The notes: a model not told the origin generated them from the sequence alone. A stretch of 64,000 nt of DNA from Alphaproteobacteria bacterium (GCA_963422565.1 OY730228.1:2889492-2953491), one strand, 5' to 3'; shown: positions 24,623 through 63,399, counted from the stretch's first letter. A program made the numbers and translations.

Positions 24623-25273
24623 ATGTCGCGGCTGACCCCCGAGATCCTGCTACAGGCATACGCGGTCGGCCTGTTCCCGATGGCGGAGCGGCGCGACGAC
24701 CCGACCCTCTACTGGATCGACCCCGAGAAGCGCGGCATTCTTCCTCTCGATGCCGTCCACATCCCCCGCCGGCTGAGCCGCACCGTGCGCGGCGGTGTCT
24801 TCGAAGTCCGCTGCGACACGGCCTTCGATCGAGTCATCGCCGCCTGCGCCGCGCCCGGGGTGAACCGCGGCGAGACCTGGATCAACGACGAGATCATTGA
24901 GCTCTACGGTGCGCTGCACCGGATGGGGCGCGCCCATTCCGTCGAATGCTGGCGGGACGGCGGTCTGGCAGGCGGGTTGTACGGCGTGTCGCTCGGGGCC
25001 GCGTTCTTCGGCGAGAGTATGTTCTCGCGGGTCCGCGACGCGAGCAAGGTCGCACTCGTCCATCTGGTCGCGAGGTTGCGCCTGGGCGGTTTCAGACTGC
25101 TCGATGTCCAGTTCGTGACCCCGCATCTCGGCCGGTTCGGCGCCGTGGAGCTGCACCGGTCGGGCTACCGTCAGATCCTCGCCGACGCCCTCGACCGCAG
25201 CGCGACCTTCTACCGGGAGCTTCCCTCCTCGGCACTCGCCGCGGTCCTGCAGCCGACGACCCAGACGTCGTAG
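24623..25273 (+). CDS. aat: leucyl/phenylalanyl-tRNA--protein transferase
   Basis: ATG at 24623 gives [51 protein letters not shown]...[30 protein letters not shown], the Aat signature. The 22-aa ORF-track N-extension is Arg-rich. Confidence 0.9.
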
Positions 25274-25598
25274 ACGGGGTGTTCCAGACTGGACAGCGCC
25301 GGGCTCGACGCGAACATCCAGCCGCTGAAGACGCGCTTCGGCGGCCGGCGCTGGCGCAGCTCGTCGATTTCCAGAAAGGCGGTCGTCTCCGGAGGCTGCT
25401 CGGGCGGTCTTTCGCGGCAGTAGCGGGCGGCGATCCTGAGCGTGCCGAAGTCGACGACACCCTCGACGGCGCCTCGATGGTGAAGATCCGGGCCGTCACC
25501 TTGTCCAGACCTCGCAAGACCGCGACGCGGGTCTCGGCCGCAACCGGCCAACAGGCCAGCGCCGCCAGAACGGAAAGGACGATCCCCCCGCCGTTCAT
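25210..25598 (-). CDS. DUF2155-family secreted protein, interrupted by a 1-nt frameshift near 25465-25472
   Basis: ATG at 25598..25596 overlaps the upstream methyltransferase stop as ATGA. It gives a signal peptide [44 protein letters not shown] in one frame. The protein continues as [41 protein letters not shown]... in the +1 frame, down to 25210. The junction lies in gcgcc|gtcgag. Confidence 0.6.
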
Positions 25599-26380
25599 CC
25601 GCCTTCGCCACAGCTGGGCTTGAAGGCGCGGAACCGCAGCCGCACATAGTCCGCGACCCAGCCCGCCGCCGGATCGTAGATCTGCGGGCGCAGGATCTCC
25701 CGCACCCGGTCGACCACCGCCGGGCGGTCCGCGGCGTCCAGCGCCAGCAGCACCCGTTCGGCAAAGGTCTCCAGCCAAGCGGCGATGTCGCCCGGCAGCC
25801 TGGTCGGCCTCTCGATCAGCTCGATCGACGCGACCGCGAAGCCTCGGGCCTCGAGGCGGTCGCGATACTCCTCGACGGAGGGGAAGTACCAGCGGAACAG
25901 CGCCGCCGCGTCGACTCCGCAGGGCGCCGCGGCGGTCTCCAGCGCCTCGCGGATGCGCCGGACATTGCCCTCGCCGCCCATCTCTCCCACCACCCTGCCG
26001 CCCGGGCGCAGAGCGCGCCAGATGCCCTCGATCACCGCGTCGGGCCGGGCCATCCAGTGGAGGGCGGCGTTGGTGAAGACCGCGTCGAAGGCCGCCTCGA
26101 AGCGCAGATCGTGCCCATCGACGACACGAGCATCGAGGCTGCGCGCGCGGGCCGCGGCGACCTGCTCCGGGCTCGCGTCCACGCCGACGACCGCCTTGCA
26201 CCGCCCGGCGAGCTCCGCGGTGAGCGCGCCGTCCCCGCATCCCAGATCGAGGATCTCCTCATGCGGGCGCGGTTCCAGCAGATCGATCAGCGGTGCGCCG
26301 AGCTCGGCGACGAAGCGTGCATTCCGCGCATAGCGGTCGGGGTCCCAGGACTGATCGGAAGCTCGTTCATGTCTCGTCAT
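25595..26380 (-). CDS. class I SAM-dependent methyltransferase (trans-aconitate methyltransferase-like)
   Basis: The sequence has ILDLGCGDGALTAEL...VVGVDASPEQV...FDAVFTNAALHWM...LRPGGRVV, methyltransferase motifs I to III. Confidence 0.88.
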   Translation of the reverse strand: MTRHERASDQSWDPDRYARNARFVAELGAPLIDLLEPRPHEEILDLGCGDGALTAELAGRCKAVVGVDASPEQVAAARARSLDARVVDGHDLRFEAAFDAVFTNAALHWMARPDAVIEGIWRALRPGGRVVGEMGGEGNVRRIREALETAAAPCGVDAAALFRWYFPSVEEYRDRLEARGFAVASIELIERPTRLPGDIAAWLETFAERVLLALDAADRPAVVDRVREILRPQIYDPAAGWVADYVRLRFRAFKPSCGEGG

Positions 26381-26398
26381 CGACCCCGCCGTTCCGAC

Positions 26399-26872: not shown

Positions 26873-26927
26873 GCGGCGAGGGTCCTTCCGGTGCGCGGGG
26901 GGTCAGGCTCTCCGGCCCGCTACCGTA

Positions 26928-27284: not shown

Positions 27285-27455
27285 CGGACCTCCCGACCCG
27301 AACTCGTCCGCCTCTCCTGCGGCCGCGACTATCGCAGCAGCGGCCGGCGCCGTCCAGACGGTGTTTCGCCAACCCGTCCCGGTTTGGCTTGCCATGCTTC
27401 GTCCGACGGCATTGAATGCGTGGAGCGCGACGGATCGGACGAACGGGAGAACGCG

Positions 27456-27920: not shown

Positions 27921-27929
27921 GCGGGCGCG

Positions 27930-30543: not shown

Positions 30544-30546
30544 GGC

Positions 30547-38796: not shown

Positions 38797-38841
38797 GGCG
38801 TCGTGTCTGCGCGCCGCGAAGCGTCCCGCAGACACGACGCC
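38797..38841. repeat. perfect 15-bp inverted repeat (hairpin) with a 15-nt loop
   Basis: GGCGTCGTGTCTGCG at 38797-38811 pairs exactly with CGCAGACACGACGCC at 38827-38841. No U-tract follows. Confidence 0.6.
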
Positions 38842-39087
38842 AGGGCAGCCCCTCGTGTAAGCTGGCGTGCAGGCTTCGTACCCGCATGGGGGTCCTCCTT
38901 CGGCTGCTTGTTCACACCGACAGCCTCGGAGACCCCCAACCCCGATTCAAGGCCCGCGTCTCACATCCGTTCTTCGTGGGCCGAAGTCGATCGCAAGACA
39001 GAAGAGATCGATCCAGGTTCTTGATTCCTTCCCGCTGCGGAGATTATCGAAGAGCTATCGGCAACAGTCGAACCAGGAGGAAAAGAG

Positions 39088-39168
39088 ATGGAAATGTCCC
39101 GTTTGGCCACACTCTCGGCCTTGGCTTTCTGCCAGTCCTTGCCGTATCCGGTTTGGGCAGGCGAGTAA
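39088..39168 (+). CDS. 26-aa hydrophobic peptide ORF with a strong Shine-Dalgarno site (hypothetical)
   Basis: AGGAGG sits 8 nt upstream of the ATG. The peptide is MEMSRLATLSALAFCQSLPYPVWAGE. It lies at the start of a low-GC block. Confidence 0.3.
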   Translation: MEMSRLATLSALAFCQSLPYPVWAGE

Positions 39169-39221
39169 GTTTTATTTTGCAGCGTTAAGCATCCTAACGT
39201 GCCGAAGTTAAGAGACAGAAG

Positions 39222-39425
39222 GTGCTAGTGATTACGTCGGATGGGGAGAAAGTTATTGAAAATGAAGGAGAAGATTTAATTGGCTCTATGATAGATAGCA
39301 TTAGCCATTTATTTGTCTCGACGATCAACGAGATGACCGATGATGGCTTTGAACCTGTGGGTGGCGTTTCTATTGCACTTGGCTATTGTGGCCCGACAGT
39401 ATGTCAGGTCTTGTATGACGACTAG
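39222..39425 (+). CDS. 67-aa acidic, Cys-containing small protein (hypothetical)
   Basis: A GTG start follows GAAGG. The protein is (M)LVITSDGEKVIENEGEDLIGSMIDSISHLFVSTINEMTDDGFEPVGGVSIALGYCGPTVCQVLYDD. Its local GC is about 35-50% against a host background above 65%. Confidence 0.35.
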   Translation: MLVITSDGEKVIENEGEDLIGSMIDSISHLFVSTINEMTDDGFEPVGGVSIALGYCGPTVCQVLYDD

Positions 39426-39457
39426 TCATCTGGAGCTGAAGTAAGTGTCATTATAGG

Positions 39458-39754
39458 ATGTCCATCGGGATTGGATTTGGGAGGTTTCCCCCGATGGCTC
39501 GTGGCGTTGGCCGTCCGCTGGCGGCCTACGAGGCCAAGGTAGCGGCGCGCGCCGGGCGCAAGGGCCGGGCCAAGGGCAAGCGGCCGAAGCCGCCTGGGGG
39601 GACGCCGCGCGGGGACGAGCAGAGCAACCTGAGCGACCCTGACAGCCGGCTGATGCGCAAGAGCAGGAGGCACGAGTTCCGCCCGAGCGGGGCCGGGACA
39701 GCGGTGAAGGAAACCGAGCCCAAAGTCCGACAGACTGATAGGGCATGTTCTTGA
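39458..39754 (+). mobile_element. IS1182/IS5-superfamily transposase N-terminal fragment (relic)
   Basis: The fragment reads ...RPLAAYEAKVAARAGRKGRAKGKRPKPPGGTPRGDEQSNLSDPDSRLMRKSRRHEF..., the conserved (T/S)DPDSR(L/I)M(K/R) region of IS1182-family transposases. It is only about 98 aa and decays before the DDE domain. Confidence 0.65.
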
Positions 39755-39777
39755 TTTATTCCGAAAGATCCGGCAGT

Positions 39778-40866
39778 ATGCCCCCCATGGAGGCTCCTCT
39801 GCCGGAATGTCCTCGCAAGGGGCGGGGCGCGGTCAGCAACCGCGCCGGACGCTTCGAGCCGCACCAGCGCCATGCGGTCGACGACGGATGGCTGCCGACG
39901 GACGAAGATCCACCGCCGCTCCGCACCACCGTCACGGCCGACCGCGCGCGCAGCATCCTCACGCGCAACTCCTCGCCAGACCTGCCGTTCGACCGGTCGA
40001 TCAACCCCTATCGCGGCTGCGAGCATGGCTGCGTCTATTGCTTCGCCCGGCCGACCCATGCCTTTCTCGGCCTGTCTCCGGGGCTCGATTTCGAGTCCAG
40101 ACTTTTCTACAAGCCGGATGCGCCCCGGCTTCTCGAGGAGGCGCTGCGCAAGCCCGACTACCGCTGCGCGCCGATCGCGATGGGCACCAACACGGATCCC
40201 TACCAGCCGATCGAGAGAGAGCTCGGTCTGACCCGGGCGGTCCTGGAGGTGCTGGACCGCTGCAACCACCCGGTCGGCATTGTCACCAAATCGACGCTGG
40301 TCCTGCGCGATGCCGATATTTTGGGGCGAATGGCCGCGCGTGGGCTCGCGCGGGTGTGCGTGTCGGTGACGACCCTCGATCGGCGGCTCGCGCGCAGGCT
40401 GGAGCCGCGCGCCCCGACCCCGCCGCGGCGGCTCGCTGCGCTGCGCGGCCTGAGCGACGCCGGCATCCCGACCGGCGTGATGGTCGCGCCGATCGTTCCG
40501 GGGCTGACGGACATGGAGATCGAGGAGATCCTGGAGGCGGCGCGCGCGGCCGGGGCCGGGACCGCCGGACATGTCCTGCTCCGGCTGCCGCTCGAGATCG
40601 CCGACCTCTTCGTCGAATGGCTCGAGGCCCATTATCCGGCGCGGGCGGCGCGTGTGCTGAGCCTGATCCGGCAGACACGCGACGGCGGCCTCTATCAGAC
40701 GGGCTTCGGCCTGCGTATGCGCGGATCTGGCCCCTATGCCGAGATGCTGAAGACCCGCTTCGCCCGCGCCTGCCGGCGCCTCGGCTATGCGCCGCGAGGC
40801 CCGGCGCTCGACGGCTCTTCCTTCGTGCCGCCCGTTCGCCAGGGGGACCAGCTCCCGCTTTTGTGA
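39778..40866 (+). CDS. radical SAM protein, PA0069 family (SplB-like)
   Basis: The sequence has KGRGAVSNRAGRFEPH...NPYRGCEHGCVYCFARPTHAFLG with the CxxxCxxC cluster. The exact start is uncertain; an ATG at 39745 is also in frame. Confidence 0.85.
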   Translation: MPPMEAPLPECPRKGRGAVSNRAGRFEPHQRHAVDDGWLPTDEDPPPLRTTVTADRARSILTRNSSPDLPFDRSINPYRGCEHGCVYCFARPTHAFLGLSPGLDFESRLFYKPDAPRLLEEALRKPDYRCAPIAMGTNTDPYQPIERELGLTRAVLEVLDRCNHPVGIVTKSTLVLRDADILGRMAARGLARVCVSVTTLDRRLARRLEPRAPTPPRRLAALRGLSDAGIPTGVMVAPIVPGLTDMEIEEILEAARAAGAGTAGHVLLRLPLEIADLFVEWLEAHYPARAARVLSLIRQTRDGGLYQTGFGLRMRGSGPYAEMLKTRFARACRRLGYAPRGPALDGSSFVPPVRQGDQLPLL

Positions 40867-43062: not shown

Positions 43063-44299
43063 ATGGTCGATATGCATTATCTGCCCAGAGTCGCCTCGAA
43101 CCTGATCGCGCGCGCCATGGACGCCTTTCCCGTCGTCGTGCTGATGGGCGCGCGCCAGAGCGGCAAGAGCACTCTGGCGCAGTCGGAACCCTTTCTGCGG
43201 GAACCGGCTCTATCTTGCGCTCGACGATCCAGATGTTCGCGAGCGGGCTCGCATGGCGGCCCGCAACCTGGTGCGCAGCCCACCCCGGCTCACCCTCGAC
43301 GAGGTGCAGCGCGGGCCCGATCTGCTGCTCGCGGTCAAGCGCGCCGTCGACGAGGATCGGCCGCGCCGGAACGGCCGCTTTGTCCTCACCGGCTCCGCGA
43401 ATCTGTCGCTCATGCGGCGTGTCTCCGAGACGCTCGCGGGGCGGGCGACCTACGTGAATCTCTGGCCGCTGACCCGCCGGGAGCGCCTGGGGTGTGGGGC
43501 GCCGGGTCTTTGGACCAAGCTGCTGGCGACGCCCGCTGTCGAATGGCCGGATCTGCTGGAAGCCCGGCAGACCGTCCCCGCCGACTGGCGGGGCGAGGTC
43601 CGCGCGGGTGGCTACCCGACGCCGGCGATAGAGCTGGACGACGGCGAGGCCCGCTCGCTCTGGTTCGACGGCTATCTGCGCACCTGTCTCGAACGTGACG
43701 TTCGGACCCTGGCGGCGATCGGCAATCCGGTCGATTTCCGGCGGCTCATGCGGGCCGCGAGCCTCCGTCTCGGAGCTTTGCTCAACCAGGCTGAGCTCGC
43801 CCGCGATACCGGTATCCCGCGCTCGACCGTACAGCGCTATCTCAACCTGCTCGAAGCCTCCTATCAACTCGTCCGGCTGGAATCTTTCTCCGTCAACCGC
43901 AGCAGGCAACTCATCAAGAGCCCGAAGCTCTACCGGAGCGATCCCGGGCTCGCTTTGTGGCTCTGCGGAGCCGAGGCGGCCGCCGGAGCGGATCTGAAGA
44001 ATCTCGTTCTGGCCGATCTTCTGGCATGGTGGGATGAGCAGGCCCCGGCCCCGGAGTTGCTCTTCTGGCGCACGACGACCGACCTCGATGTCGATTTCGT
44101 GATCGAGTCCGGCCGCCGGCTCCTGCCGATCCAGGTCAAGGCCGCCGCGCGACCGGGGCACGCCGATACGCGCGGCCTGCGGGCCTTCCGAGAGGAGCAT
44201 CCGGAGCGGTTCACCGGCGGCCTGCTGCTCTGCGGCGGCCGAGAAGCGCAGTGGCTGTCCGACCGCATCCTCGGGGTCCCCTGGTGGCGGGTGCTGTAA
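43063..44299 (+). CDS. AAA-family ATPase with DUF4143 C-terminal domain, interrupted by a 1-nt frameshift near 43195-43205
   Basis: Frame A gives MVDMHYLPRVASNLIARAMDAFPVVVLMGARQSGKSTLAQSEPFLRE (Walker A). The protein continues in the +1 frame as NRLYLALDDPDVRERARMAARNLVRSPPRLTLDEVQRGPDLLLAVKRAVDEDRPRRNGRFVLTGSAN... The junction is ctgcggg|aaccgg and is restored by adding one G or A. Confidence 0.7.
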
Positions 44300-44323
44300 T
44301 ATGGCGGCCGGGCGGAGCGGGTC

Positions 44324-44659: not shown

Positions 44660-44747
44660 CCGGAGCCCGGCGCGGCCGCGGTTGCAGGAACGAAGCCGTC
44701 CGTGCCATACTCAACATGTTGTCGTATGGGAGGGTGCGGTGGCTCGC

Positions 44748-45455
44748 ATATTGAGGTCAGGCGACCGGCCGAAATGGCTCGATATCTGCCGGCGGGTCGC
44801 CGCTGCCGCCCTTTTGACCGCTTTCCTGCCGGCGGCCGACCGGGCCGAAACCCTGGCGAGCGCGCCCGATCGGCTCCAGCTCGCTCAGGCCCAGGCGCCC
44901 GCGCCCGAGGAGACCTTCGACAATGTGGCCGTCGCCGAGACGGATCTGGTGGTGGGCGAGGCCGGCGCCCCGGTGACCATCGTCGAATACGCGTCGTTGA
45001 CCTGTCCCGCTTGCGCGGAGTTCCGCGCGAACGTGCTTCCTCGACTCATGAAGCCCTATGTCGAGACCGGCAAGGTCAGGTTAGTCTACCGCGACTTCCC
45101 GCTCGACGGGCTCGCTCTCGCGGCGGCGACCCTCGCGCGCTGCTTCGACGGCAAGCGTTCTCTCGACTTCATCGACCTGCTGTTCCGAGAGCAGGCCCGC
45201 TGGGCCCGCGGCAGGGAGGGGCTGGCGGTGCTGATCCGCCTCGCCCGGCTGAGCGGCGTCTCGGCGGCGCGGGCCGCCTCCTGCATCCAGGACGAAGCGA
45301 AGCAGCGGATCGTGCTCGAACAGAGACAGACGGCGAGCCGTCGGTTCGGCATCAGCGCGACGCCGACTCTGCTGGTGAATGGCCGCAAATATTCCGGGGG
45401 CCTCGCCTTCGACCAGCTCGGCGCGGTGATCGAGGCGCTCCTGTCGGAGTCGTAA
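44748..45455 (+). CDS. DsbA-family thiol:disulfide oxidoreductase (secreted)
   Basis: A GTG at 44748 follows GGGAGGG. It gives a signal peptide (M)ARILRSGDRPKWLDICRRVAAAALLTAFLPAA and then IVEYASLTCPACAEF, a CPAC thioredoxin motif. Confidence 0.85.
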   Translation: MLRSGDRPKWLDICRRVAAAALLTAFLPAADRAETLASAPDRLQLAQAQAPAPEETFDNVAVAETDLVVGEAGAPVTIVEYASLTCPACAEFRANVLPRLMKPYVETGKVRLVYRDFPLDGLALAAATLARCFDGKRSLDFIDLLFREQARWARGREGLAVLIRLARLSGVSAARAASCIQDEAKQRIVLEQRQTASRRFGISATPTLLVNGRKYSGGLAFDQLGAVIEALLSES

Positions 45456-45471
45456 CGGGCGTCGGGCTAAA

Positions 45472-48400
45472 GTGCACGTCACGCGGCTGCGCCTCAGCGG
45501 GTTCAAGTCCTTCGTCGACCCGACCGAGGTCCATTTCGTGCCGGGGCTCACGGGAATCGTCGGCCCGAACGGCTGCGGCAAGTCCAATATCGTCGACGCG
45601 CTGCGCTGGGTCATGGGAGAGGCGGCCCCCAAGCAGATGCGCGGCGGCGAGATGGACGACGTGATCTTCGCGGGAACGTCGGCGCGGCCGGCGCGGAACA
45701 TCGCCGAGGTGCTACTCAATCTCGACAACGCCGATCAGTCGGTCGCCGTTTCCGGGGTTCGGAGCGCGGAGATCGACGTGACCCGGCGCGTCGAGCGCGG
45801 GCGCGGCTCGCTCTACCGCATCAACGGCCGCGAGGCGCGCGCTCGCGACGTACAGACGCTGTTCGCCGACGGCTCGTCGGGTGCCCGCGCGACGGCGATC
45901 GTCGGTCAGGGCCGGATCGCCGACGTCATCAACGCGAAGCCGACGGAACGGCGCGCCGTGCTCGAGGAGGCGGCGGGCATCGCCGGGCTGCATGCCCGAC
46001 GCCACGAGACCGAGTTGCGACTCCATGCCGCAGAGGCGAATCTCGCTCGGCTCGAAGACATGATCGAAACGCTGGACGAGCAGCATCGCGCGCTCAAACG
46101 GCAGGCCCGGCAGGCCAATCGGTATCGCGGTCTCGGCGCCCAGCTGCGGCGCACCGAGGCGATGCTGCTGCATCGGCGCTGGACTTCCGCGAACGCCGCC
46201 ACGACAGCGGCGCTGGACGCGCTTCGCGAGGCCGAAGACCGGGTCGCGGAGCAGAGCCGCGTCGCCGCCCGGGCTGCCGCCGACTACGAGCGGGCGGCCG
46301 GCGCGCTCCCCGGGCTGCGCGCGGCCGAGCGCGACGCCGCCCAGCTCGTGCAGGGCGCGCAGAAGCGGCGCGACGCGTTGGCCGCCGAGGAGAGCCGGAT
46401 CGAGAGCGCCCGGCGCACGCTGGACGCGCGTCTCGATCAGATCGACGGCGATCTCGCGCTGGAGCGGGGCCGCAGCGCCGACGCGCGCCAGGCCCTGGAG
46501 CGTCTCGACGGGGAGCGCGCGGCGTTGCGCGAGGTCGAGGCGGGGCTCGCGGCGTCGGCGGAAGCGCTCGCCGCGCGGTTGGCGGACACGGACCGCGCGG
46601 TCGCCGCTTCGGAGGCGAAGCGGGACGATGCCCAGCGCGTTCTGACCGCCGCCGAATCGCGGCGGCATGCGATCGAGGACCGGCTCCGGGGGCTCGCCGC
46701 GCAACGCGGGCGAATCGAGGACCGCCGTCGCGGTCTCGGCCGCGAGCAGGCCGATCGGGACGGCGAAGCCGCGCTCGAGGCGGCGCTAGAAGCGGCCGAG
46801 GCGGCCGCTGCTCTGGCGGTCGCGGCGTTCGCCGCCGCGGGGAACCGGCTCGAAGCGGCGGAGAACGCGCAAGCTTGCGCGGAAGAGGCGCGTGCGGCAT
46901 CGCACGAGGCGCTCCGCGCCACACGCATCGAGACGGATGGGCTCGAGACCGAGAGCGGCGCCCTGGCGTCGCTGATGAAGGCCGAAGCGCCGGGGGGCCG
47001 GCCGGCCGTGATGGATGCGGTCTCCGTCGTGCCGGGCTACGAGGCGGCGCTCGGCGCGGCATTGGGCGACGATCTGCTGGCCCCCGACGACGAGGCCGCG
47101 CCGAGGCATTGGCGCGCGCTCGGTCCCGACCCCGGCGCCCCGCCTCTGCCCGCCGGCGCGCGCCCCCTATCCGATCTGGTCTCGGCCCCGGCCGCTCTGC
47201 GACGGCGGCTCGATCAGATCGGGCTGGTGGAGGACGAAGCCGCCGCCGAGAGCCGCGTCGGCGACATCGTCCAGGGCCAGCGCCTTGTTACCGGCTCGGG
47301 GGCGCTCTGGCGTTGGGACGGCTATCGCATCGCTGCCGGCACCGAGACGCCGAGCGCCGTCCGCCTGGCGCAGCGGAACCGGCTGGCGGAGTTGGAGCGC
47401 GGGCTGGCGGCCGCGCGGGCGGCGCAGGCCGCGGCCGCGCGGCGCGAAGCCGAGGCGCGGGCCGGCCTCGCTGCGGCCGCCGCCGAGACCCGCGCCGCCC
47501 GCGCGGCCCGGCGCTCGGCCGAAGCGGCGATGAATGTCGCGACCGAGGCCAAGGCCGGGAAGGCGGCGCGCCTCGCCGCGGCGCGGCTCCGATGTCGCGC
47601 CAACGAGGACGCGCGCGCGGCGCTCACGGTCGAGCTCGCCGAGACCGACTCCCAGCTCGCCGAGGCCCGCCGAGAGAGGGACATGCTTCCCGACCTCGCG
47701 GCGGCGCGGGCCGCGGCCGAGGACGCGCGGCGGGGACTCGCCCGCGTCCGCGGCGAGGCGGAGCATGCGCGGCGCGACCATCAGCGCTCTTTGGCCGAGA
47801 TGGAGGCGCGGCGGCGGAGGATCGGGGCGATCGAAACCGAGACCGCATCCTGGCGCGCGCGCGCCGCCGATTATCTGCGGCATGACGGGATTCTCGAGGC
47901 CCGGCGCGAGGAAGCGCGAATCCAGTTGCAGGCGCTGGACGGACGGCCGGCCGCGCTGAAGCGCGAGATGGCGGCGCTCGACCGCCAGATCGCCGATGCC
48001 GGCGCGGGTCATGACCGGGCCGTCGCCGCGCTCGCCGACGCGGAAGCCGAGATCGCCGCCGGCGGCCGCGCCGTTCGCGCTGCCGAGACGGAGCTGGCCG
48101 ACCGGCGGGAGGAACGGGTCCGACGCGACGCCGCGCGCGAACGGGCGGAGGCCGAAGCGCGCGCCCTGTCCGACACCGCCCGCGAGCGGCTTGGCTGCGC
48201 GCCCGACGAAGCGCTCGCGGCGGCGGGGCCGGATGCGGCGGCCGATATCCCCGACATCCCGTCTCTGGAGTCGCGGCTCGCACGCCTTCTCCGGGCTCGC
48301 GAGAACATGGGTCCGGTCAATCTGCGCGCCGACATGGAGGCCGACGCGCTCGGCAAGAGGATTTCGGAAATTCACGACGAGCGCGCGGATCTGCTCGGCG

Positions 48401-50357: not shown

Positions 50358-51032
50358 CTACAGCCGGGTGAACTCCCGGCGGACCCGAGCGATGAAGCGC
50401 GCGCAGCGCTTGTGCGGCGCGGTGTCGACGCCGTAGAGCGAGAGCATGCGGAACGACGCCCTGCCGGCGCAGAGCCCGAAGACGCCGTTGCCGATCTGAC
50501 GGCGGACCGGGTTGCGCATATAGCCCTCGGCGATCCAGCGGGGCGATCCGGTCGTGGTCACGACATGGACGCTGCGGAGCTTGCCGAGACGCGGCCGCAA
50601 CCGTAGCGCCAGCATCCACCATCGCGACCTGGCTTCCGAGCGGAGCGCACGGAACAGGTCGGCCGGCCCCTGGCCCTCCGGGGCCGGGGCGAAGGCGATT
50701 CCGGGCACGAAGACCCGGTCGATGAAGCCCTTGAGGATCGCCGGCGGGCCGAACCACCATTGCGGGAAGACCAGAACGATCCCGTCCGCCTCGCGCAGCC
50801 TCGCGCAGTAGCGCGCGACATCCTGGGGCGGCGCGTAGCCAGGTTCGAAATAGGCCTCGCGCTCCTCGGCGCGGAGGCGCGGATCGAAGTCCTCCCGGTA
50901 CAGGTCGACCAGGTCCGCCTCGTGCCCCGCCGCCGCGAGCCCGTCGAGGACCGCATCGCGGAGCGCCGCCCCGAGACTGGCGTGGAGGGGGTGTGCGTGG
51001 ACGACCATGAAACGCCGCTGCGACCCGCTCAT
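50358..51032 (-). CDS. NAD(P)H dehydrogenase (quinone)-like flavodoxin-fold oxidoreductase
   Basis: ATG at 51032..51030 gives MSGSQRRFMVVHAHPLHASLGAALRDAVLDGLAAAGHEADLVDLYREDFDPRL...ADGIVLVFPQWWFGPPAILKGFIDRVF, an NQO1/MdaB-like fold. The 68-aa N-extension on the track is spurious. Confidence 0.85.
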   Translation of the reverse strand: MSGSQRRFMVVHAHPLHASLGAALRDAVLDGLAAAGHEADLVDLYREDFDPRLRAEEREAYFEPGYAPPQDVARYCARLREADGIVLVFPQWWFGPPAILKGFIDRVFVPGIAFAPAPEGQGPADLFRALRSEARSRWWMLALRLRPRLGKLRSVHVVTTTGSPRWIAEGYMRNPVRRQIGNGVFGLCAGRASFRMLSLYGVDTAPHKRCARFIARVRREFTRL

Positions 51033-51326
51033 GCGGACCTCCCTAACGTCGTGCCGCGCCCTGCGCCTCGCGCTGCCATGGCCAGTATACGCGCCGGATG
51101 CCGCGCCGACGCGACGCCGCCGAGCCCCGGATGGGCGGACCGGCCGGACGCGGTGCATGTGTCGGAGCGCCGGGGCGAAAATTCGGGCCATCGCGGGGGC
51201 CTTTCCCGACGGGCTCGAGATGTGGATGCTGGGCACCCGGTGCTCGCGCCGCCTCGTCGACCGTCGGCTCGACCGGCCGTGCCGCCCCCGGCGCCACTCG
51301 AACGTATGAGGCTGAAAGAGCGAGAC

Positions 51327-54719: not shown

Positions 54720-54845
54720 TCACACTAACGCAGTGCCTCGACGATGAGCGCGAAGGTGATGAAGCCGAGGAAGATGACGTCGAGCTTGTCGTAGCGTGTG
54801 AAGTGAGGTGGGCTCGCCTTTTCGGACAGCCTGGCGGCGATCTTG
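54720..54845 (-). mobile_element. IS5-family transposase C-terminal fragment (orfB end)
   Basis: The minus-strand translation ends ...HFKIAARLSEKASPPHFTRYDKLDVIFLGFITFALIVEALR*, which matches the conserved ...RIATRYDKLxxNFLxFIxLAxIxxWL terminus of IS5 (IS427-group) transposases. Confidence 0.55.
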
Positions 54846-55251
54846 AAGTGTATCTTGGTTGAAGTTCAGGCCGCCATCCAGCGCACCATCGCGGACGAGC
54901 AGGTGGCCGAAGTGATCGAGCGGACGCTGGAGACGACACCGGCGGACGCCACCCACCGGTCGCTGCGCTCGATGGCGAAGGAGGCGGGGTTGTCGCATAG
55001 CTCGATCTGGCGCATCCGGGGTGCGTTCGGCCTGCAGCCGAACCGGTCGGAGACCTTCAAGCTCTCCAGCGATCCCGCACTTCGTGGACAAGGTCCGCGA
55101 CATCATCGGCCTCTATCTGTCGCCTCCCGACCGCGCGTTGGTGCTCTGTGTCGACGAGAAGAGCCGGATCCAGGCCCTCGACCGCACCCGGCCGGTCTCC
55201 CCGACTGGCCGCCCGCCCCGTGGCGCGATGCCGAGGTCGAGGGCGAGGTGA
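54843..55251 (+). mobile_element. IS630-family transposase fragment (frameshifted and truncated)
   Basis: One frame gives ...[41 protein letters not shown]. The next frame gives [40 protein letters not shown], the hallmark IS630 motif. The frame ends before the DDE region. Confidence 0.75.
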
Positions 55252-55591: not shown

Positions 55592-55846
55592 CTACCGCAT
55601 CCTGTGCAAGCGCGAACGCGCTGAATGGGCAAAGGGGGCGACCGGCAGCAGTCGCCACGGGCAGCCCGAGCGCAAGATGTACAGAACCGCGTTCACTACG
55701 TCCCGCAAGTCTGTCGTCCGCGGTCGGCCCAGAGCTTGCGCCGCCGGCATATGGGGTTCGATCGACTTCCACTCATCGTCGGTAAGATCGCTCGCATAGC
55801 GCAACTTCTCGCGGTCATACTTCGGTCGAGTGATTTCGGTCCACAT
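55592..55846 (-). mobile_element. IS5-family (IS427-group) transposase orfA fragment
   Basis: The fragment reads [68 protein letters not shown]..., the canonical orfA N-terminus of IS427-group elements. The tail is diverged and no intact orfB follows. Confidence 0.75.
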
Positions 55847-56236
55847 GTTGTGCCTCCGTGCTCGTCCAACACAAGCAAGTGAAGCACAACATACTGAGAT
55901 CACTCAATTCATTTCGGGCCAGACACTCAGTCATTAGCTATCCCGACAGGAATCGAAGCTCCATGAAGGGAGTGTACGGCCGGAACCTCGCAAAATGGGA
56001 GAATTGTCGTCTGATGATCTGTCAGGCCAACCTCAGCTTGACGAAGCGGCACCTCGCGGGTCCGCGAGAAGCGCACCGTCATGCAGTCTTCGACCTCCTC
56101 GATCTCGGGGCGAGGCAGCCTCGTGGAGGCACGACCGTTCCGCCATGGTGACCGTTCCACGGCTCCCGTCAAATCGCCTCTTGGTTTGCGGTACCGTATG
56201 AATTATCTCACCTCTGGTTTACTTGGAGGCCTCGCG

Positions 56237-56512
56237 ATGCCGGCAACTGAACGGCTCACCACCACGATCTTGACCAAGGGCCAGGTGGTTCTGCCCAGAG
56301 CGATCCGTCGAACGCTGCGCTGGGAGTCGGGAATGCGGCTGGCGGTGGAGAACACGCCCGAGGGCGTGCTGCTGAAACCCGCGCGCGTGTTTGCCGAGAC
56401 CCGGCCCGAGGATGTATTCGGCTGCCTTGCCTGCGATGGCCCACCCAGATTCATGGCGGAGATGGAGGCGGGGGTCCTGGCGGAGGCGAAGCGGCGCCAT
56501 GCGGGCGGTTGA
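56237..56512 (+). CDS. vapB: AbrB/MazE/SpoVT-family antitoxin (VapB-like)
   Basis: GGAGG lies 8 nt upstream. The protein reads MPATERLTTTILTKGQVVLPRAIRRTLRWESGMRLAVENTPEGVLLKPA..., a swapped-hairpin DNA-binding domain. It overlaps the downstream PIN gene by 14 nt. Confidence 0.8.
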   Translation: MPATERLTTTILTKGQVVLPRAIRRTLRWESGMRLAVENTPEGVLLKPARVFAETRPEDVFGCLACDGPPRFMAEMEAGVLAEAKRRHAGG

Positions 56513-56884
56513 TACCAATGTCGTTGTTCGATACCTGACCGGCGACGAGCCGGTGCAGGCCGCCAAGGCCAGAGCCGTGATCGAGGCCGGGCATGTCTTC
56601 GTCGGCACCACGGTTCTGCTGGAAAGCGAACGGGTGCTGCGTAGCGTCTACGGTTTCGGCGGAATCGAGGTTGCGGCGGCGCTTCGCGCCTTCGCAGGAC
56701 TGCCCGGCGTCTTGGTGGAGAGCCCTGCCGTACTCGCCGACGCACTCGACTGGCCGACGAGGGCATGGACTTCGCCGACGCACTCCATCTCGGCGCTGCC
56801 GGACGTCGCGAGGCCATGCTGACCTTCGACCGCCGGTTTATCGAGACTGCCAAGGATCTTCCTGTCGGGGTGACCGCAGCTTGA
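56499..56884 (+). CDS. vapC: PIN-domain toxin VapC, interrupted by a 1-nt frameshift near 56752-56758
   Basis: Frame A gives MRAVDTNVVVRYLTGDEPVQAAKARAVIEAGHVFVGTTVLLESERVLRSVYGF...VLADALDW. The protein continues in another frame as ...DEGMDFADALHLGAAGRREAMLTFDRRFIETAKDLPVGVTAA*. The junction is gactgg|ccgac and is restored by adding one G to make TGG GCC GAC. Confidence 0.7.
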
Positions 56885-57102: not shown

Positions 57103-58256
57103 CTAGGATCCGTCGCCGGGGCGGTTCGCGGAGGTTTCCGGAGATCCGGTTCCGGTAGTAGATCGCCCGGGCGACGGGCGGAGCGCGCATCGGGGCCGGA
57201 ACAGCCGCCCGCCGGTGATCGGCCGGGCGACGCCCGTCGTCGTCGGCAGGCTCAACGGCAGGCCGCGCAGGCTCCGTACCGCGAGGAAGGCGAAGGCCTG
57301 CGCCTCGAGCGCGTCGCCCGCCCAGCCCTCGCGCTCGACCGGTAGGCAGGGAACGCCGAGGACGCGGCGCAGCCGGGACATGATCGCCGGGTTGCGTCGC
57401 CCGCCGCCGGTTGCCAGCCACAGCCTGGGCGGCGCCGGCAGGCAGGCGGCCGACCGCCGGATCGCCTGGACCGTCACCTCGACCAGCGTGGCGGCCCCGT
57501 CGGCGAGCGCCATGTCGCCGAGCGGATCGAGGTCGAACGCCAACCGATCCAGCGACTTCGGCGGGAGGCGGGCGAAATAGGGGGCGGCGAGATAGCGCGC
57601 CACCGCCGCCGGGTCCGCCGCACCTGCGGCGGCGATCCGCCCGTCCTCGTCGAACGGGCGGCCGGTCCGATCCTCGACCCAGCGGTCGATCAGCGCGTTG
57701 CCGGGGCCGGTGTCGAAGGCGATCGGCGGCGCGCCGGCGCGGATCCAGGTCAGGTTGGCGATTCCGCCGATATTGAGCAGGGCGACCGGGCCCTTCAGCC
57801 GCGCGGCGAGCGCCTGATGATAGAGGGGCGCGAGCGGCGCGCCCTCGCCGCCGGCAGCGACATCGGCGCTCCGGAAATCGCAGACCACCGGGATGCCGAG
57901 CTCCTCCGCGAGGAGCGCGCCGTCGCCGATCTGGAGCGTCCGCCCGGCCCGCGGGCGTGATCGATCGTATGGCCGTGGAAGCCGACCAGACCGACGCCCG
58001 GATGGCCGGCGACGAGGCGGTGGGCGGCCCCCGCGTGGAGCCGGGTGAGCTCCGCCTCCACTGCCTCGTAGCCGGTCGTCCTGCCCAGCGTCGCCGCGAG
58101 CCTACGGCGAAACGACGCCGGGTAGGGGACCGTCATATGGGGTCCGAACGCTGCGACGGTCTCTCCGTCCGTCCGAATCAGCGCCGCGTCGATGCCGTCG
58201 AGCGAGGTTCCGCTCATCAGGCCGAGCGCCCAGAGGGCGGCCGGGCCGCCCGCCAT
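57103..58256 (-). CDS. anmK: anhydro-N-acetylmuramic acid kinase, interrupted by a 1-nt frameshift near 57940-57950
   Basis: The N-terminal frame, with ATG at 58256, gives MAGGPAALWALGLMSGTSLDGIDAALIRTDGE...GFHGHTIDHARGPG. The C-terminal frame gives ...RTLQIGDGALLAEELGIPVVCDFRSADVAAGGEGAPLAPLYHQALA... The minus-strand junction gggccggg|cggacg is restored by adding one G. The start overlaps the upstream deacetylase stop as TGATG. Confidence 0.8.
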
Positions 58257-59125
58257 CAGATATGCGGTCCGGTCGCGAGATAGTGGTCGATGATCTCGGA
58301 TCCGGTTGCCCGCCAGACGCCTTCATGCGCGCAGATATGGTCGAGAACCGAATCCAGAGCGTGGATCCGATGGGGGACCCCGATCACGAAGGGGTGGAGG
58401 CAGATCGCCATCACCCGGCCGGACTCCGCGCCCTCGCGGTAGAGCGTGTCGAACTGGCGGCGAGCCATCGCCGCGAACTCCTCGGAGCTTCGGCCCATTC
58501 TCAGAATCTGGGGTAGGTCGTTGATCTCGCCCGAATAGGGGATCGAGCAGATGCGTCTGTCGCCCACCTCCATCGCGTAGGGCTGATCGTCGTTGATCCA
58601 GTCGGCGACATAGTCCGCCCCCGCGTCGATCAGATTCTCCAGCGTCTGCCGGCTCTCCTGGAGGCCCGATGACAGCCAGCCGCGCGGCCGCGTCCCCGTC
58701 GCCGCCTCGATACGGTCGAAGACGCGCATCACCGCCGCCCGCTCCTCCTCCGGGGTCATCAGATGGAGATAGCGGCTGTTGCTCTCGTTATGGCCCATGA
58801 ACTCCCAGCCCAGCGCCCTGGCGTCCTCGACGATCTGCGGATAGTCGTCGCAGACCTCGCTGTTGAGGGCCGCGGTGCCGCGCACGCCGTGCCTGGCCAT
58901 CACCTCCATGATCCGGAAGATGCCGACCCGCGCCCCGTAGTCCCGCGCCGCCCAGTTGATGATGTCGTGCGGCTTGCCGGTACCGCCGGGAACCGGCTCG
59001 TCGAGCGGGAAGACCTCGATATTGGGGATCACCCAGAGGGCGAGGCGCGCGCCGCCTGGCCATTCCAGCCTGGGCCGTCGGTTGATGGGCACATAGGGGA
59101 AGGGGCCGTAGCGCCGCGGTTCCAT
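58256..59125 (-). CDS. polysaccharide deacetylase family protein (PuuE/allantoinase-like)
   Basis: The 289-aa ORF has EWPGGARLALWVIPNIEVF...HGVRGTAALNSEVCDDYPQIVEDARALGWEFMGH, the NodB-fold family. Confidence 0.8.
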   Translation of the reverse strand: MEPRRYGPFPYVPINRRPRLEWPGGARLALWVIPNIEVFPLDEPVPGGTGKPHDIINWAARDYGARVGIFRIMEVMARHGVRGTAALNSEVCDDYPQIVEDARALGWEFMGHNESNSRYLHLMTPEEERAAVMRVFDRIEAATGTRPRGWLSSGLQESRQTLENLIDAGADYVADWINDDQPYAMEVGDRRICSIPYSGEINDLPQILRMGRSSEEFAAMARRQFDTLYREGAESGRVMAICLHPFVIGVPHRIHALDSVLDHICAHEGVWRATGSEIIDHYLATGPHI

Positions 59126-60439: not shown

Positions 60440-60457
60440 AGCGGTCGGTGCCGCCGG

Positions 60458-61489
60458 TCAATGCCGGCGCGGGAGCTTCATATAGTCGTAACGGTCGCCC
60501 GCCTCGACCCGCAGCGAAAGCACATCGTCGTCGCGCAGCAGAGTGAAGCGCAGCTTGGCGCCCGGCGGGCCGGCTGCCCATAATGTCCTGTAGTAATGGC
60601 CCAGCCCGCTCACGGCGACGCCTTCGAGCGACAGCAGGACATCGCCCGGCTGGAGCCCGGCCTGATCGGCGGGCGCGTTGGGGGCGACCCCGGTGACGAT
60701 CAGCCGCCGTTCGGACTCGCCGACATACATCCCGAGCCATGGGCGCGGCGGCCGGGCCGCCCGCCCGGTCCGGATCATCGCCGGCCCGATCGGCTCCAGC
60801 AGATCGATCGGGACGAACATGTTGCCGGGCGCCGGCGCGTCGCCTTCGATGGCGTGCTCGATATAGAGCGAGCCGATCCCGACCAGCTCGCCCCTGCGAT
60901 CGATCAGCGCCGCCCCGCCCCAATAGGGATGCATCGGCGCCGTGTAGACCGCCCGATCGAGCATGTACTCCCAGGAGCCGGCGAATTCGTGGATCGAGAC
61001 GACATTGGCGGCGATCGCATGATCCTCGCCGCCGCAGGAGGCGACGATGACGGGATCGGATTCGGCGAGCCGCGCCGAACGGCCGATCGGCACGGGCGCG
61101 ACCCCGAGCGGCGCGCGCGCCCGCACCATGCCGAAACCGGTCTCGTGATCGTAGGCAACGGGGTCGGCCTCGACCTTCCTGCCGTCGCGGCCGAGGAGGG
61201 TCACGGCGCTCGCCTCGCTCATCAGATAGCCGATCGTCAGCACGAGGCCGTCCGCATCGATCGCGACCCCGTTGCCCTCGCGTTCGGTGCCGAGGATAGA
61301 GGCGGTGAAGGCCGTTCGCGGCACCTCGGCATGGAGCCGGAAGACGGCGTCCAGCACGCGGTCGAGATCGTAGCCGATGGCCGCGCGGTCGGGCCGCGGC
61401 GCGCGCAGCAGGGCGGGGTGGACGCCACCCGGCACCCCCTGCGGCCGATACCCGTTGGCGTGCTCGATTCCCGCCATTGACCCCGCCAT
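60458..61489 (-). CDS. trypsin-like serine protease with C-terminal PDZ domain (S1C/DegP-like)
   Basis: The likely start is the internal ATG at 61489 (MAGSMAGIEHANGYRP...). The sequence has GTEREGNGVAIDADGLVLTIGY...GGAALIDRRGELVGI and a PDZ-like C-terminus, GLQPGDVLLSLEGVAV. Confidence 0.75.
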   Translation of the reverse strand: MAGSMAGIEHANGYRPQGVPGGVHPALLRAPRPDRAAIGYDLDRVLDAVFRLHAEVPRTAFTASILGTEREGNGVAIDADGLVLTIGYLMSEASAVTLLGRDGRKVEADPVAYDHETGFGMVRARAPLGVAPVPIGRSARLAESDPVIVASCGGEDHAIAANVVSIHEFAGSWEYMLDRAVYTAPMHPYWGGAALIDRRGELVGIGSLYIEHAIEGDAPAPGNMFVPIDLLEPIGPAMIRTGRAARPPRPWLGMYVGESERRLIVTGVAPNAPADQAGLQPGDVLLSLEGVAVSGLGHYYRTLWAAGPPGAKLRFTLLRDDDVLSLRVEAGDRYDYMKLPRRH

Positions 61490-61696
61490 CCCGCCGGCGC
61501 CATGGGCCAGCCTCGGCAGGCTAGCGGATGGCGGCCATCCGGACAAACCGGCGTCCGCTTTCGTGCCCCGGCCCATGGGTGCGACCATACGCTTCGCCGG
61601 GCGTCATCTGTCTCGGCCCCGGGGCGTCCGAATTGCCCTCGCCCGCTTTCCCTACAAAAGCCGTCAACCAGATGCCGTTGCCGGATATGCGAATGT

Positions 61697-62347
61697 TCAC
61701 TGCGAGAGACCGCTGACGAAACCGCAAAGTTTCTCGAATGCCGGAGACATAAAATTCCAGATGTTCTGCTGCGCGGCTTCCCCGACTCGTGCCATCGGAT
61801 CCGGCATCGCGGCGAGATAGGCATGCGCGAAACTCTTGTCCATATTGGCCGACATTATCGCGCCTTCTGCTGTGAGGCATTCCATATACTTCTCAACGCA
61901 TCGAGCGATAACTGTCCCCTCGAAAGACTGTCGGCACAGGGTTTCCAGACTGCCGAACTCATCGCGATCCGGCACGATGAACACGCCAACGGAGGGAACC
62001 GAACCCGAGAATAGTCCGGGGAAGTCGAGCGGTTCGTATCCAGACTGCAAGAGATGGCTTCTGATGCTTTGAAATGCACCGTCCGGGTTGTTGTCGGCGT
62101 CTCGGACGACACCGATGGATTGGAGCGTGGGCCGTGTTCGTACTGCGGCGCGTATCGCTTTCAGTCTTCCGGGAAACCGGTCTTTTCCCCCGGCATCGAT
62201 CACCTGAATATCCGACACGCCGCCAAGGCAATACCGGATCAGGGCACGGAACAGATTGACCTCGTCCCGCCCCTCGACGAGCAAGAGTCGGTCGGAATCG
62301 ATGCTCAGCTTCTCCTTCCGGCCTTCCTCCGGATTCTCTTGCGGCAT
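61697..62347 (-). CDS. DUF4435/TOPRIM-like protein (AbiLii/AriB-like putative nuclease partner of an ABC-type ATPase)
   Basis: The ATG at 62347 overlaps the upstream ATPase stop. The protein reads MPQENPEEGRKEKLSIDSDRLLLVEGRDEVNLFRALI...SIGVVRDADNNPDGAFQSI, with a conserved Glu and a DxD as in TOPRIM/OLD-type domains. GC is lower than the flanks. Confidence 0.6.
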   Translation of the reverse strand: MPQENPEEGRKEKLSIDSDRLLLVEGRDEVNLFRALIRYCLGGVSDIQVIDAGGKDRFPGRLKAIRAAVRTRPTLQSIGVVRDADNNPDGAFQSIRSHLLQSGYEPLDFPGLFSGSVPSVGVFIVPDRDEFGSLETLCRQSFEGTVIARCVEKYMECLTAEGAIMSANMDKSFAHAYLAAMPDPMARVGEAAQQNIWNFMSPAFEKLCGFVSGLSQ

Positions 62348-63399
62348 TCATCTGACCTCGAGGTCAAGTTCGCGGGCTCCCGCCAGCGCCTCTCCAGTGA
62401 ATGTCGCGGCTTCCGTTCGTCCCGTATTTTCGTTACGGAAAAGCTTGTGGATGGCGAGATCCGCGGGGGCGTCGGCGAAGGCGTCTATCGCCGCGTCGAT
62501 GAATTCGCCGCTATGGGTCGTTGCGATGAATTGCACGTTCCATTGCTTCATCCACTGGCGCACCTTGCTCCATATGTCGCGTTGCGCGGAACAATGGATA
62601 CCGTTTTCCAGCTCGTCCACCAGCAGAACGGATTCTCGACAGGCCGAGAAACTGAGCAGCAATCGCACCAGTCTCACGGCACCGCCTCCGAGATCGTGAA
62701 GCGGCCTGGGCTTTCCGCCCGCCACTGTGACCGAGAGATAGGACTCCCCGCTACCGTCGGTCAGAATCTCCACATCGTCGCTTCCATCGACGACCAGGTT
62801 GAGGGCCTTCACCAGCTCCTTCTTGCGACCGTCTCTGACCAGGCTCGAATATCTCTGAAAATATTCGTCGGGGGTCTCCTGCTAAAATCTCGTGCTTTCT
62901 ATGATGCAGTTCCGATGTTCAGATGGCGGTTTTTGATATGGGAGGAGCACCGTCCCCGAGGGTGTAACCTGGATCGCATTTACCTCGTCTCCTACGGGTT
63001 TCCGTCGAGATAGGTGCGGATTAATCCCATCACCGGAGATAGTTTCTCTGTATTTCCTTGCAGAGATCGGACGATAGCTCCTTCGGAGGAAACATCGTTG
63101 ATCTTCTCGAAAATGAATCCGACCTCCTGTTTCGTTCCACATTCTTTTCCGCGAAGGGTCAACGCGCCGCCCGTCAGCCGGGATATTGGATCCAGGGGCG
63201 GAACGCGGGAGCGCTGCACGTTCGCGTTCCACAACAGACTTGGATTGTATCGCCCGACGAACAGCCACATCGCCTCGATCAGAGCCGTCTTGCCGACGCC
63301 GTTCGCGCCGGTGATCAGATTGGCCCTCGTCAGAAGGGGAAGATCGAGGCCGTCGATGCCGCGGTAGCGAACGGCCGTGAATCTCTCTAGTCGAACCAT
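62348..63399 (-). pseudogene. ABC-type ATPase (AAA_21/AAA_15-like, AbiLi/AriA/OLD-ATPase-like), disrupted by a frameshift near 62993-62999 and an in-frame TAG at 62882-62884
   Basis: The N-terminal frame gives MVRLERFTAVRYRGIDGLDLPLLTRANLITGANGVGKTALIEAMWLF (Walker A) and stops at 62992. The +1 frame continues ...PVGDEVNAIQVTPSGTVLLPYQKPPSEHRNCIIESTRF and then hits TAG. The same frame reads on as QETPDEYFQRYSSLVRDGRKKELVKALNLVVDG...LLVDELENGIHCSAQ (Walker B / D-loop)...FIATTHSGEF (H-loop) to 62348. Confidence 0.65.

Follow-up and report, generated by a model that had tools for sequence, protein, structure and literature searches.

The window, which is the whole 64,000-nt stretch of DNA analysed here, lies within a single contig of 3,443,779 bp and contains five genes that are each split between two consecutive reading frames. 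They encode a DUF2155 protein, a DUF4143 ATPase, a VapC toxin, an anhydro-N-acetylmuramic acid kinase, and a second ATPase resembling a component of a defence system. Two truncated transposase relics and the intact neighbours of two of the split genes complete the set (Table 1). The IS630-family relic has its own +1 frame break near 55060, which is the sixth frame break in the window.

Table 1. Split genes, their intact neighbours, and transposase relics, with coordinates counted from the first nucleotide of the window
Feature	Position	Strand	Supporting match
DUF2155 gene	25210..25598	-	Pfam 1-89/89 after repair
AAA_14/DUF4143 ATPase, PADLOC candidate PDC-S01	43063..44299	+	Pfam AAA_14 + DUF4143; PDC-S01 E = 6.8e-102
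IS630-family transposase relic, truncated	54843..55251	+	NCBIfam NF033545 53-127 and 118-169 of 299, two frames
IS5-family transposase relic, truncated, N-terminal DUF4096 part only	55592..55903	-	Pfam DUF4096 1-57/76; NCBIfam NF033580 2-61/258
vapB antitoxin (AbrB/MazE type), intact	56237..56512	+	Pfam MazE_antitoxin; 14-nt overlap with vapC
vapC PIN-domain toxin, frame broken	56499..56884	+	Pfam PIN 3-119/120 after repair
anmK (anhydro-N-acetylmuramic acid kinase)	57103..58256	-	Pfam AnmK (PF03702) 4-365/367, E = 3.4e-81 after 1-nt repair
DUF3226 partner gene, PADLOC PDC-M38B, intact	61697..62347	-	Pfam DUF3226 2-203/208; directly downstream of broken ATPase
AAA_15/AAA_21 ATPase, PADLOC PDC-M38A / AbiLi match	62348..63399	-	Pfam, PADLOC

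The five split genes

A preliminary description of this DNA had attributed all five breaks to single-base deletions at short homopolymers. The splits themselves are real. All five sequence strings quoted for the breaks occur at the positions given, and in five of five genes the two consecutive frames join into one full-length family member after a one-nucleotide repair, as judged by Pfam on the repaired proteins. When orthologous loci are compared, none of the five repaired proteins has an alignment gap at its junction, and the orthologs of all five are single ORFs. A codon-usage Viterbi scan detected no further frame breaks in the genes of the window, and about 40 other genes compared with Pfam had neither a frame break nor an in-frame stop, most of them matching over their full length. 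A quinone-reductase-like ORF (50358-51041) and an amidase (16202-17419) gave partial profile matches only, yet each is a single frame with a family-typical C-terminus. An ARAGORN call of tRNA-Pro at 61058-61135 was rejected, being inside a protease ORF and without Rfam support.

The DUF2155 gene is missing one base (G on the gene strand) between 25468 and 25467, and HMM scoring places the best repair at 25466-25469. Once repaired, the protein is gap-free at the junction and keeps all residues that are invariant among the aligned orthologs. Likewise, anmK is missing one base. The locus named in the preliminary description was correct, but a better fit lies about 12 nt upstream of the site proposed there, most probably between 57957 and 57956 (GATCAC/GCCCG, reading HRPRAGRT after repair), where repair scores 601.3 bits against 591.3. 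AnmK retains more than 110 invariant columns, including every residue common to ten orthologs. The gene has CGA at 57192..57190, where the nine nearest aligned orthologs stop, resulting in a 29-amino acid tail. The lost stop hints at relaxed constraint and hence at a real pseudogene.

The DUF4143 ATPase gene differs from the other four. There is one base too many within CGGGAAC (43198-43204), and the gene is 1 modulo 3 in length, such that the frame returns only when one base is removed, not added. Because removal gives a protein of 411 amino acids, the usual ortholog length, and an alignment free of gaps, the lesion is an insertion. The score is 756.7 bits if the base removed is an A of AA and 755.6 if it is a G of GGG. 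The earlier claim that adding one base restores each frame therefore stands for DUF2155, vapC, anmK, and the defence ATPase, whereas the claim that all lesions run in the same direction fails at this gene. After repair, the protein matches the PDC-S01 profile over residues 3-408, has conserved Walker A residues, and keeps all residues invariant among aligned homologs alongside the single lesion. By profile and domain content, the gene is a candidate single-gene defence system, PDC-S01.

In vapC, one base is missing at TGG/CC/GAC (56753-56756). Repaired VapC is 52-59% identical to 129-amino acid plasmid VapCs, with no gap at the junction, and the acidic residues D5, E42, D94, and D111 are conserved. 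Plasmid homologs of vapB share both the 14-nt overlap and the 276-nt length of the antitoxin gene, and its exact 91-amino acid product is a recorded protein of the source contig. The pair thus has the features of a VapBC type II toxin–antitoxin module, a PIN toxin with its acidic residues and an overlapping AbrB/MazE antitoxin gene in front. As in the DUF4143 gene, there is a single lesion, and the residues invariant among aligned homologs are all present.

The defence ATPase carries two lesions. One base is missing within GGAAACCC (63003-62996). The other lesion is an in-frame TAG at 62884..62882, which replaces the near-invariant Gln of RFQHETP and persists after the +1 repair. The repaired protein matches homologs of 349-350 amino acids end to end, without a gap at either the junction or the stop, the latter aligning with the Q of RFQHETP. 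PADLOC scores the ATPase as PDC-M38A (1.7e-35) and AbiLi (2.7e-31), and the adjacent gene as PDC-M38B (9.2e-13). The arrangement is that of PDC-M38 (AbiL-like), in which an AAA_15/21 ATPase (A) adjoins a DUF3226 protein (B), and the two genes sit on an island with a GC content of 57-59% against 68.5% for the window. We regard them as a candidate PDC-M38 defence system, predicted from these matches, in which the ATPase is inactivated.

Sequence context of the lesions

Homopolymer context had been read as a sign of sequencing error. In all five genes the lesions are at runs of 1-3 nt. Within the window, 58% of inter-base junctions adjoin a run of at least 2 nt and 98.7% of 13-nt windows hold such a run. 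Short runs are nearly ubiquitous in sequence of 68.5% GC, so this context is no more than expected by chance. The concentration of errors at long homopolymers that marks nanopore R9, 454, and Ion Torrent data is absent here, with no frame break at any of the 106 runs of at least 5 nt in the window, 23 of which are at least 6 nt. No shared sequence or methylation motif was found at the five sites, as no 4-, 5-, or 6-mer is enriched (max-statistic P = 0.3-0.9, allowing for multiple testing). Unusual substitutions number 5 of 144 in AnmK, 21 of 225 in the DUF4143 protein, and 8 of 111 in the ATPase, values within or near the orthologs' own range and thus uninformative as a sign of relaxed constraint.

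Read-built contigs separate two of the lesions

To bring in evidence outside the assembly, we used public Logan contigs for run ERR11641160, which derive directly from its raw reads. In Logan, every public read set is assembled separately, and k-mers that occur only once are dropped (PMC12424806). Three contigs correspond to the window. L086 covers 24553-25551 (999 nt) and has a C/G added at 25467/25468, L085 covers 62179-63166 (988 nt) at 100% identity, and L087 matches 43789-46004 exactly. Over the 4,203 nt compared there is a single difference, indicating that a single strain gave rise to both reads and assembly. The comparison spans the lesion sites of two of the five loci, those of DUF2155 and the defence ATPase. 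L087 begins at 43789, with the lesion of the DUF4143 gene outside it and the 3' part of that gene identical. For the anmK, vapC, and DUF4143 sites, exact-protein look-ups through vapB, VapC-N, the AnmK fragments, a PuuE-like gene, and MutY returned no Logan contig, and neither did those of MlaD and GlnB, which would have lengthened the comparison.

At DUF2155, the window reads GCGCCGTCGAG and the independent reads GCGCCGGTCGAG. The extra base of L086 sits exactly at the predicted site and yields an intact frame. The lesion is thus missing from independent reads, as expected of an artefact, and is an assembly consensus error or, less likely, a minority allele. With two majority calls for one strain that disagree by a single base, a consensus error is the simplest explanation, although a true polymorphism between the two libraries is conceivable instead.

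The defence ATPase gave the opposite result. An intact allele in the reads would be GGAAAACCC, or CAG at 62884..62882. Instead, L085 carries both the frameshift and the TAG. Because both lesions recur in the read-built contig, the gene is a genuine pseudogene, inactivated by a frameshift and a separate CAG-to-TAG nonsense mutation, that is, by more than one independent inactivating lesion. The view that all five breaks are sequencing errors consequently holds for DUF2155 and breaks down at the ATPase. The related warning that calling these genes pseudogenes would mislead divides in the same way, being justified for DUF2155 and mistaken for the ATPase.

The origin of the reads also bears on the unpolished long-read or flow-based assembly that had been proposed. 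The known runs within ERR11641069-085 are PacBio Sequel II/IIe data and those within ERR11641095-156 are Illumina RNA-seq or Hi-C data, all from the Sanger Tree of Life programme. The platform of ERR11641160 itself is inferred from these adjoining accessions. The Logan contigs are 1-2 kb in length, which fits short reads. Because the accession block of the run consists of Wellcome Sanger Tree of Life data, PacBio HiFi and Illumina, the sequence probably comes from a host-associated alphaproteobacterium that this programme assembled from PacBio HiFi reads, at odds with the proposed assembly type. Residual indel errors of such an assembly would be rare and would have no tie to long homopolymers. 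If ERR11641160 instead represents the long reads behind the assembly, the agreement at the ATPase is less independent, but a nonsense substitution arising from systematic error is still unlikely.

The nearest relatives, as best matches, share 74% identity in TyrS (scan of genome contigs) and 77% in AnmK. No same-species genome for comparison was found by the TyrS scan, in clusters at 90% identity, where each window protein tested is the sole member, or by an exact 26-mer search of JGI metagenome contigs, which gave 0 matches. The route used here, from exact-protein look-up of short neighbouring ORFs to Logan contigs, allows single-base lesions to be tested without sequenced relatives.

Discussion

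Taken together, it is likely that the five splits, though truly present in the deposited sequence, do not have one common origin. The distribution of the lesions is consistent with this. Errors would be expected to spread by gene length regardless of function, and the lesions do not. Defence, toxin, or IS sequence, which makes up 4.3 kb of 58.6 kb coding (7.4%), holds three of the five lesions (binomial P = 0.0035), or four of six when the IS630 relic is counted (P = 0.0004), bearing in mind that the gene classes were set after seeing the data and that accessory regions in metagenomes may have lower coverage or mixed strains and thereby a higher local error. Since three of the five hits are on genes that are dispensable and may be costly, and decayed IS elements lie in the region, the lesions in vapC and the DUF4143 ATPase are more likely genuine inactivations. 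For the anmK break, another consensus error and a recent mutation are about equally likely, given that the gene is otherwise perfectly conserved and, like DUF2155, a core gene.

It is very unlikely that the genes are all intact in the organism and that the five breaks were introduced by sequencing or assembly errors in an unpolished long-read or flow-based assembly. Such a reading would account for the absence of the DUF2155 lesion from independent reads, for the good conservation of all five genes and their gap-free alignment at the breaks, for a single 3.44-Mb contig, typical of long-read assembly, and for 5 of about 62 genes being broken, which is high for a free-living bacterium. It would leave unexplained why L085 repeats the frameshift and the nonsense codon of the ATPase over 988 identical bases, why the DUF4143 lesion is an insertion and runs of at least 5 nt are all spared, and why the lesions cluster in defence and toxin genes. 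The run's accession block moreover indicates a HiFi and Illumina project. The converse, that all five are genuine mutations in the population of a host-associated bacterium gaining pseudogenes, with DUF2155 polymorphic and its lesion the majority in the long-read library but the minority in the other, is somewhat less improbable but still unlikely. The read-confirmed lesions of the ATPase, the truncated IS relics and low-GC islands as traces of ongoing gene decay, the lost stop codon of anmK, and the run's origin in a programme in which host tissue is sequenced along with its bacteria all favour it. Against it, the sole difference between L086 and the window over 999 nt is the base that restores DUF2155, and both DUF2155 and AnmK keep every residue invariant among aligned orthologs.

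On/off switching of defence and toxin genes is known in other organisms, and three of the affected genes are of this kind, raising the possibility that the breaks are functional, through programmed ribosomal frameshifting or phase variation. The break of the ATPase is at C GGA AAC, similar to a -1 slippery heptamer and two codons short of a zero-frame stop. We give this reading almost no credence and have rejected both mechanisms, as a canonical X XXY YYZ heptamer is missing from all five junctions, the runs of 1-3 nt are too short for slippage, and the orthologs are uninterrupted. Moreover, the ATPase has a TAG downstream in frame, and the DUF2155 break is missing from the reads.

Returning to breaks of mixed origin, the main relevance is to annotation, as no single label, be it 'pseudogenes' or 'sequencing errors', fits every split gene of the window. 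The appropriate annotation is an intact gene for DUF2155 and a pseudogene for the PDC-M38A-like ATPase. Beyond annotation, it is possible, at a little under even chances, that this lineage, whose sequenced relatives are at most about 75% identical in protein sequence, sheds its defence and toxin genes singly, losing PDC-S01, VapC, and PDC-M38A while the partners stay intact. If so, the window would capture a symbiont that has only begun to lose its defence systems, with each gene felled by a single recent point lesion.

Several known phenomena invite comparison. The DUF2155 break, GG read as G in an otherwise intact gene, is like the residual one-nucleotide consensus indels that split gene calls in long-read (meta)genome assemblies. 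Sereika et al. 2022 (PMC9262707) describe indels of this type and point out that bins of low coverage need polishing. These classically concentrate at long homopolymers, whereas here 106 runs of at least 5 nt are in frame and one of the two testable lesions is an artefact. In programmed -1 frameshifting, as in dnaX and the IS3-family transposases, one protein likewise arises from two overlapping frames, but the present genes have no canonical heptamer, their orthologs lack the two-frame layout, and one of them has an extra stop. Phase variation by slipped-strand mispairing also inactivates accessory genes through single-base length changes. Phase-variable tracts are typically much longer than the 1-3 nt seen here. 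The decay of defence and toxin genes beside IS relics is commonplace, and the PDC-M38A/AbiLi-like ATPase resembles other pseudogenes of defence and toxin–antitoxin systems in its two read-confirmed lesions, its low-GC island, and its intact partner. The vapC and PDC-S01-like ATPase genes differ in that they carry one lesion each, with the enrichment test as the sole argument that these are genuine.

Split genes and their repair

The window is 64 kb long with a GC content of 68.5% and contains no N. The preliminary description quoted five strings as sites of split genes; each is found where it was placed, and at each locus the halves of one protein lie in two consecutive reading frames. We matched each product to Pfam profiles after one-base repair, and all five match their family profile end to end. 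Ortholog or homolog alignments of AnmK, DUF4143, ATPase, DUF2155 and VapC have no gap at the junction.

Coordinates of the features discussed; profile positions of the five split genes refer to products after one-base repair
Feature	Position	Strand	Description
DUF2155 gene	25210-25598	-	family profile 1-89/89
Low-GC patch	38800-39800		54-57% versus 68.5% GC
ORF in patch	39222-39425		67 aa
Segment in patch	39518-39727		210 nt, weak signal in the codon model
DUF4143 ATPase gene	43063-44299	+	AAA_14 plus DUF4143 profile
Quinone-reductase-like ORF	50358-51041	-	flavodoxin fold
IS630-family relic	54843-55251	+	positions 53-169 of 299; own +1 frame break near 55060
IS5-family relic	55592-55903	-	positions 2-61 of 258 kept
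vapC	56499-56884	+	PIN profile 3-119/120
anmK	57103-58256	-	AnmK profile 4-365/367
CGA at anmK 3' end	57190-57192	-	
PuuE-like polysaccharide deacetylase gene	58256-59125	-	between anmK and tyrS
tRNA-Pro(CGG) call	61058-61135	-	ARAGORN; none found by Rfam
DUF3226 partner gene	61697-62347	-	downstream of ATPase; intact
Defence ATPase gene	62348-63399	-	AAA_15/AAA_21 profile
TAG in defence ATPase	62884-62882	-	remains after frame repair

Every possible single-base repair was scored against ortholog HMMs. This scoring agrees with the proposed sites in DUF2155, DUF4143 and the ATPase but not in anmK, where the best fit is ~12 nt upstream, between GATCAC and GCCCG (601.3 versus 591.3 bits), and repair gives HRPRAGRT, recovering the conserved H-R-P..G of AnmK. 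The vapC site is borne out by reading the junction directly against the VapC alignment. The lesions had all been described as 1-nt deletions. However, the length of the DUF4143 gene is 1 modulo 3. An added base leaves it unrepaired, whereas removal of one yields 411 aa, as is usual for its orthologs, and the alignment is then free of gaps; judged by length and alignment, its lesion is an insertion within CGGGAAC. In the defence ATPase an added base does restore the frame, but not an intact ORF, because a TAG is left. It aligns with a nearly invariant Gln of homologs (RFQHETP), implying a CAG-to-TAG substitution.

Read-based comparison

The source is a single contig of 3,443,779 bp (NCBI and ENA), from which the AnmK C-, DUF4143 C-, VapC N- and both ATPase fragments are on record as in the window, as are intact TyrS and AccC. 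In a set of about 15 billion proteins, each of these, like every window protein tested, stands alone in its 90%-identity cluster. The closest relatives reach 74% identity for TyrS (one-genome-per-species GTDB) and 77% for AnmK. The only other trace of the organism is in Logan, where each public read set is assembled separately as a k-mer graph and k-mers seen once are discarded (PMC12424806). Two window ORFs led to contigs there, all from run ERR11641160.

Contig L086 (1000 nt) is window 24553-25551 plus one extra base at 25467/25468, otherwise identical. Along the gene strand the contig has GCGCCGGTCGAG and encodes intact DUF2155, matching the predicted repair exactly. L085 (988 nt) is identical to window 62179-63166, including CTCGACGGAAACCCGTAGG and GATTTTAGCAGG, so the reads hold both ATPase lesions. 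L087 (2216 nt) is identical to window 43789-46004. Across the three contigs 4,203 nt were compared with one difference, at the DUF2155 lesion; reads and assembly thus come from the same strain.

ERR11641160 is cited in no paper in the searchable literature. It falls in a block of accessions submitted by Wellcome Sanger Tree of Life, in which ERR11641069-085 are PacBio Sequel II/IIe runs and ERR11641095, 097, 141, 143-146, 148, 155 and 156 are Illumina RNA-seq or Hi-C runs. Bacterial genome bins of the programme come from HiFi data processed with metaMDBG, at about 5-27x coverage, and contigs of 1-2 kb are consistent with short reads. On these grounds, the source genome most likely comes from a host-associated bacterium sequenced with HiFi reads, and ERR11641160 is most likely an Illumina library. 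The organism probably lives, uncultured, in association with a eukaryotic host. The outcome at the two tested loci holds for any platform of the run.

Survey of the window

A codon-usage Viterbi model recovers the four of the five frame switches that are in normal-GC sequence, to within a few bases of the best-fit sites, and no further switch in the window outside the IS-relic region. Codon usage in the ATPase island is foreign, and the model calls only part of it as coding. About 40 other window genes were compared with Pfam; most matched full length, a few were partial or unmatched, and none had a frame break or in-frame stop. A sixth break, of +1 type, lies in the truncated IS630 relic beside the truncated IS5 relic; both decayed relics are just upstream of vapBC.

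Other features were seen in passing. The low-GC patch, where the codon model sees hardly any coding signal and little is present besides the two short segments listed, could represent a further small insert of foreign origin or a decayed gene. In the quinone-reductase-like ORF, similarity to solved structures and Pfam ends at ~residue 115-123, followed by an insertion-like stretch of ~25 aa; the codon model keeps a single frame, so this appears to be a lineage-specific insertion, not a frame error. The tRNA-Pro call overlaps the part of a DegS/HtrA-like ORF that encodes its protease domain and is almost certainly spurious.

Origin of the lesions

The origins of the five lesions are mixed. All had been read as probable sequencing errors, which fits DUF2155, where the reads carry the restoring base and every residue invariant among orthologs is kept: this is a consensus error, with polymorphism or a minority allele less likely. 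It fails for the ATPase (PDC-M38A/AbiLi by PADLOC, its partner PDC-M38B), whose two lesions are in the reads; this PDC-M38A-like gene is a genuine pseudogene. Homopolymer context, offered as the signature of error, does not discriminate. Runs at the lesion sites are 1-3 nt; 58% of all junctions in the window touch a run of at least 2, and of 13-nt windows, which allow for positional uncertainty, 98.7% hold a run of at least 2 and 47% one of at least 3. None of the 106 runs of at least 5 nt (23 of them at least 6 nt) is the site of a frame break; a homopolymer-driven error process would predict the reverse (Sereika et al. 2022, PMC9262707). No shared k-mer motif was found at the lesion sites. 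Neither the blanket reading nor its signature argument is supported, though for one of the genes the caution was warranted. Programmed frameshifting is excluded, as is phase variation: slippery heptamers and long tracts are both absent, the orthologs are each encoded in one ORF, and the ATPase contains an additional stop.

Three of the five lesions fall in defence, toxin or IS sequence, 7.4% of coding bases (P = 0.0035), or 4/6 with the IS630 relic (P = 0.0004), the classes being chosen post hoc in both cases. Such a concentration is expected if selection on these genes is relaxed or negative, but not from a uniform error process, although consensus may be locally poorer in accessory regions of metagenomic assemblies. 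The DUF4143, vapC and ATPase genes lie in or near low-GC patches, and none of 80 relatives' tyrS neighbourhoods has a vapC or ATPase match. We consider the vapC and DUF4143 lesions each probably genuine, with equal likelihood. The DUF4143 ATPase is PADLOC candidate system PDC-S01 (6.8e-102). Its 69-77% identity to proteins labelled Acidobacteriota or Bryobacterales by their sources, and its position between mutY and the DciA-DsbA-smc cluster, suggest a horizontally acquired single-gene insert despite native-like GC.

For anmK, neither error nor a genuine frameshift is favoured. It keeps every residue invariant among its orthologs, but its stop is lost: CGA stands where the nine nearest aligned orthologs end (..GGRLFRP), so the ORF is extended by 29 residues, a second oddity of this gene. 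Unlike in the window, where the PuuE-like gene separates them, anmK and tyrS lie directly side by side in divergent orientation in 65 of the 80 relatives. With no departure from them seen here, all findings fit known phenomena.
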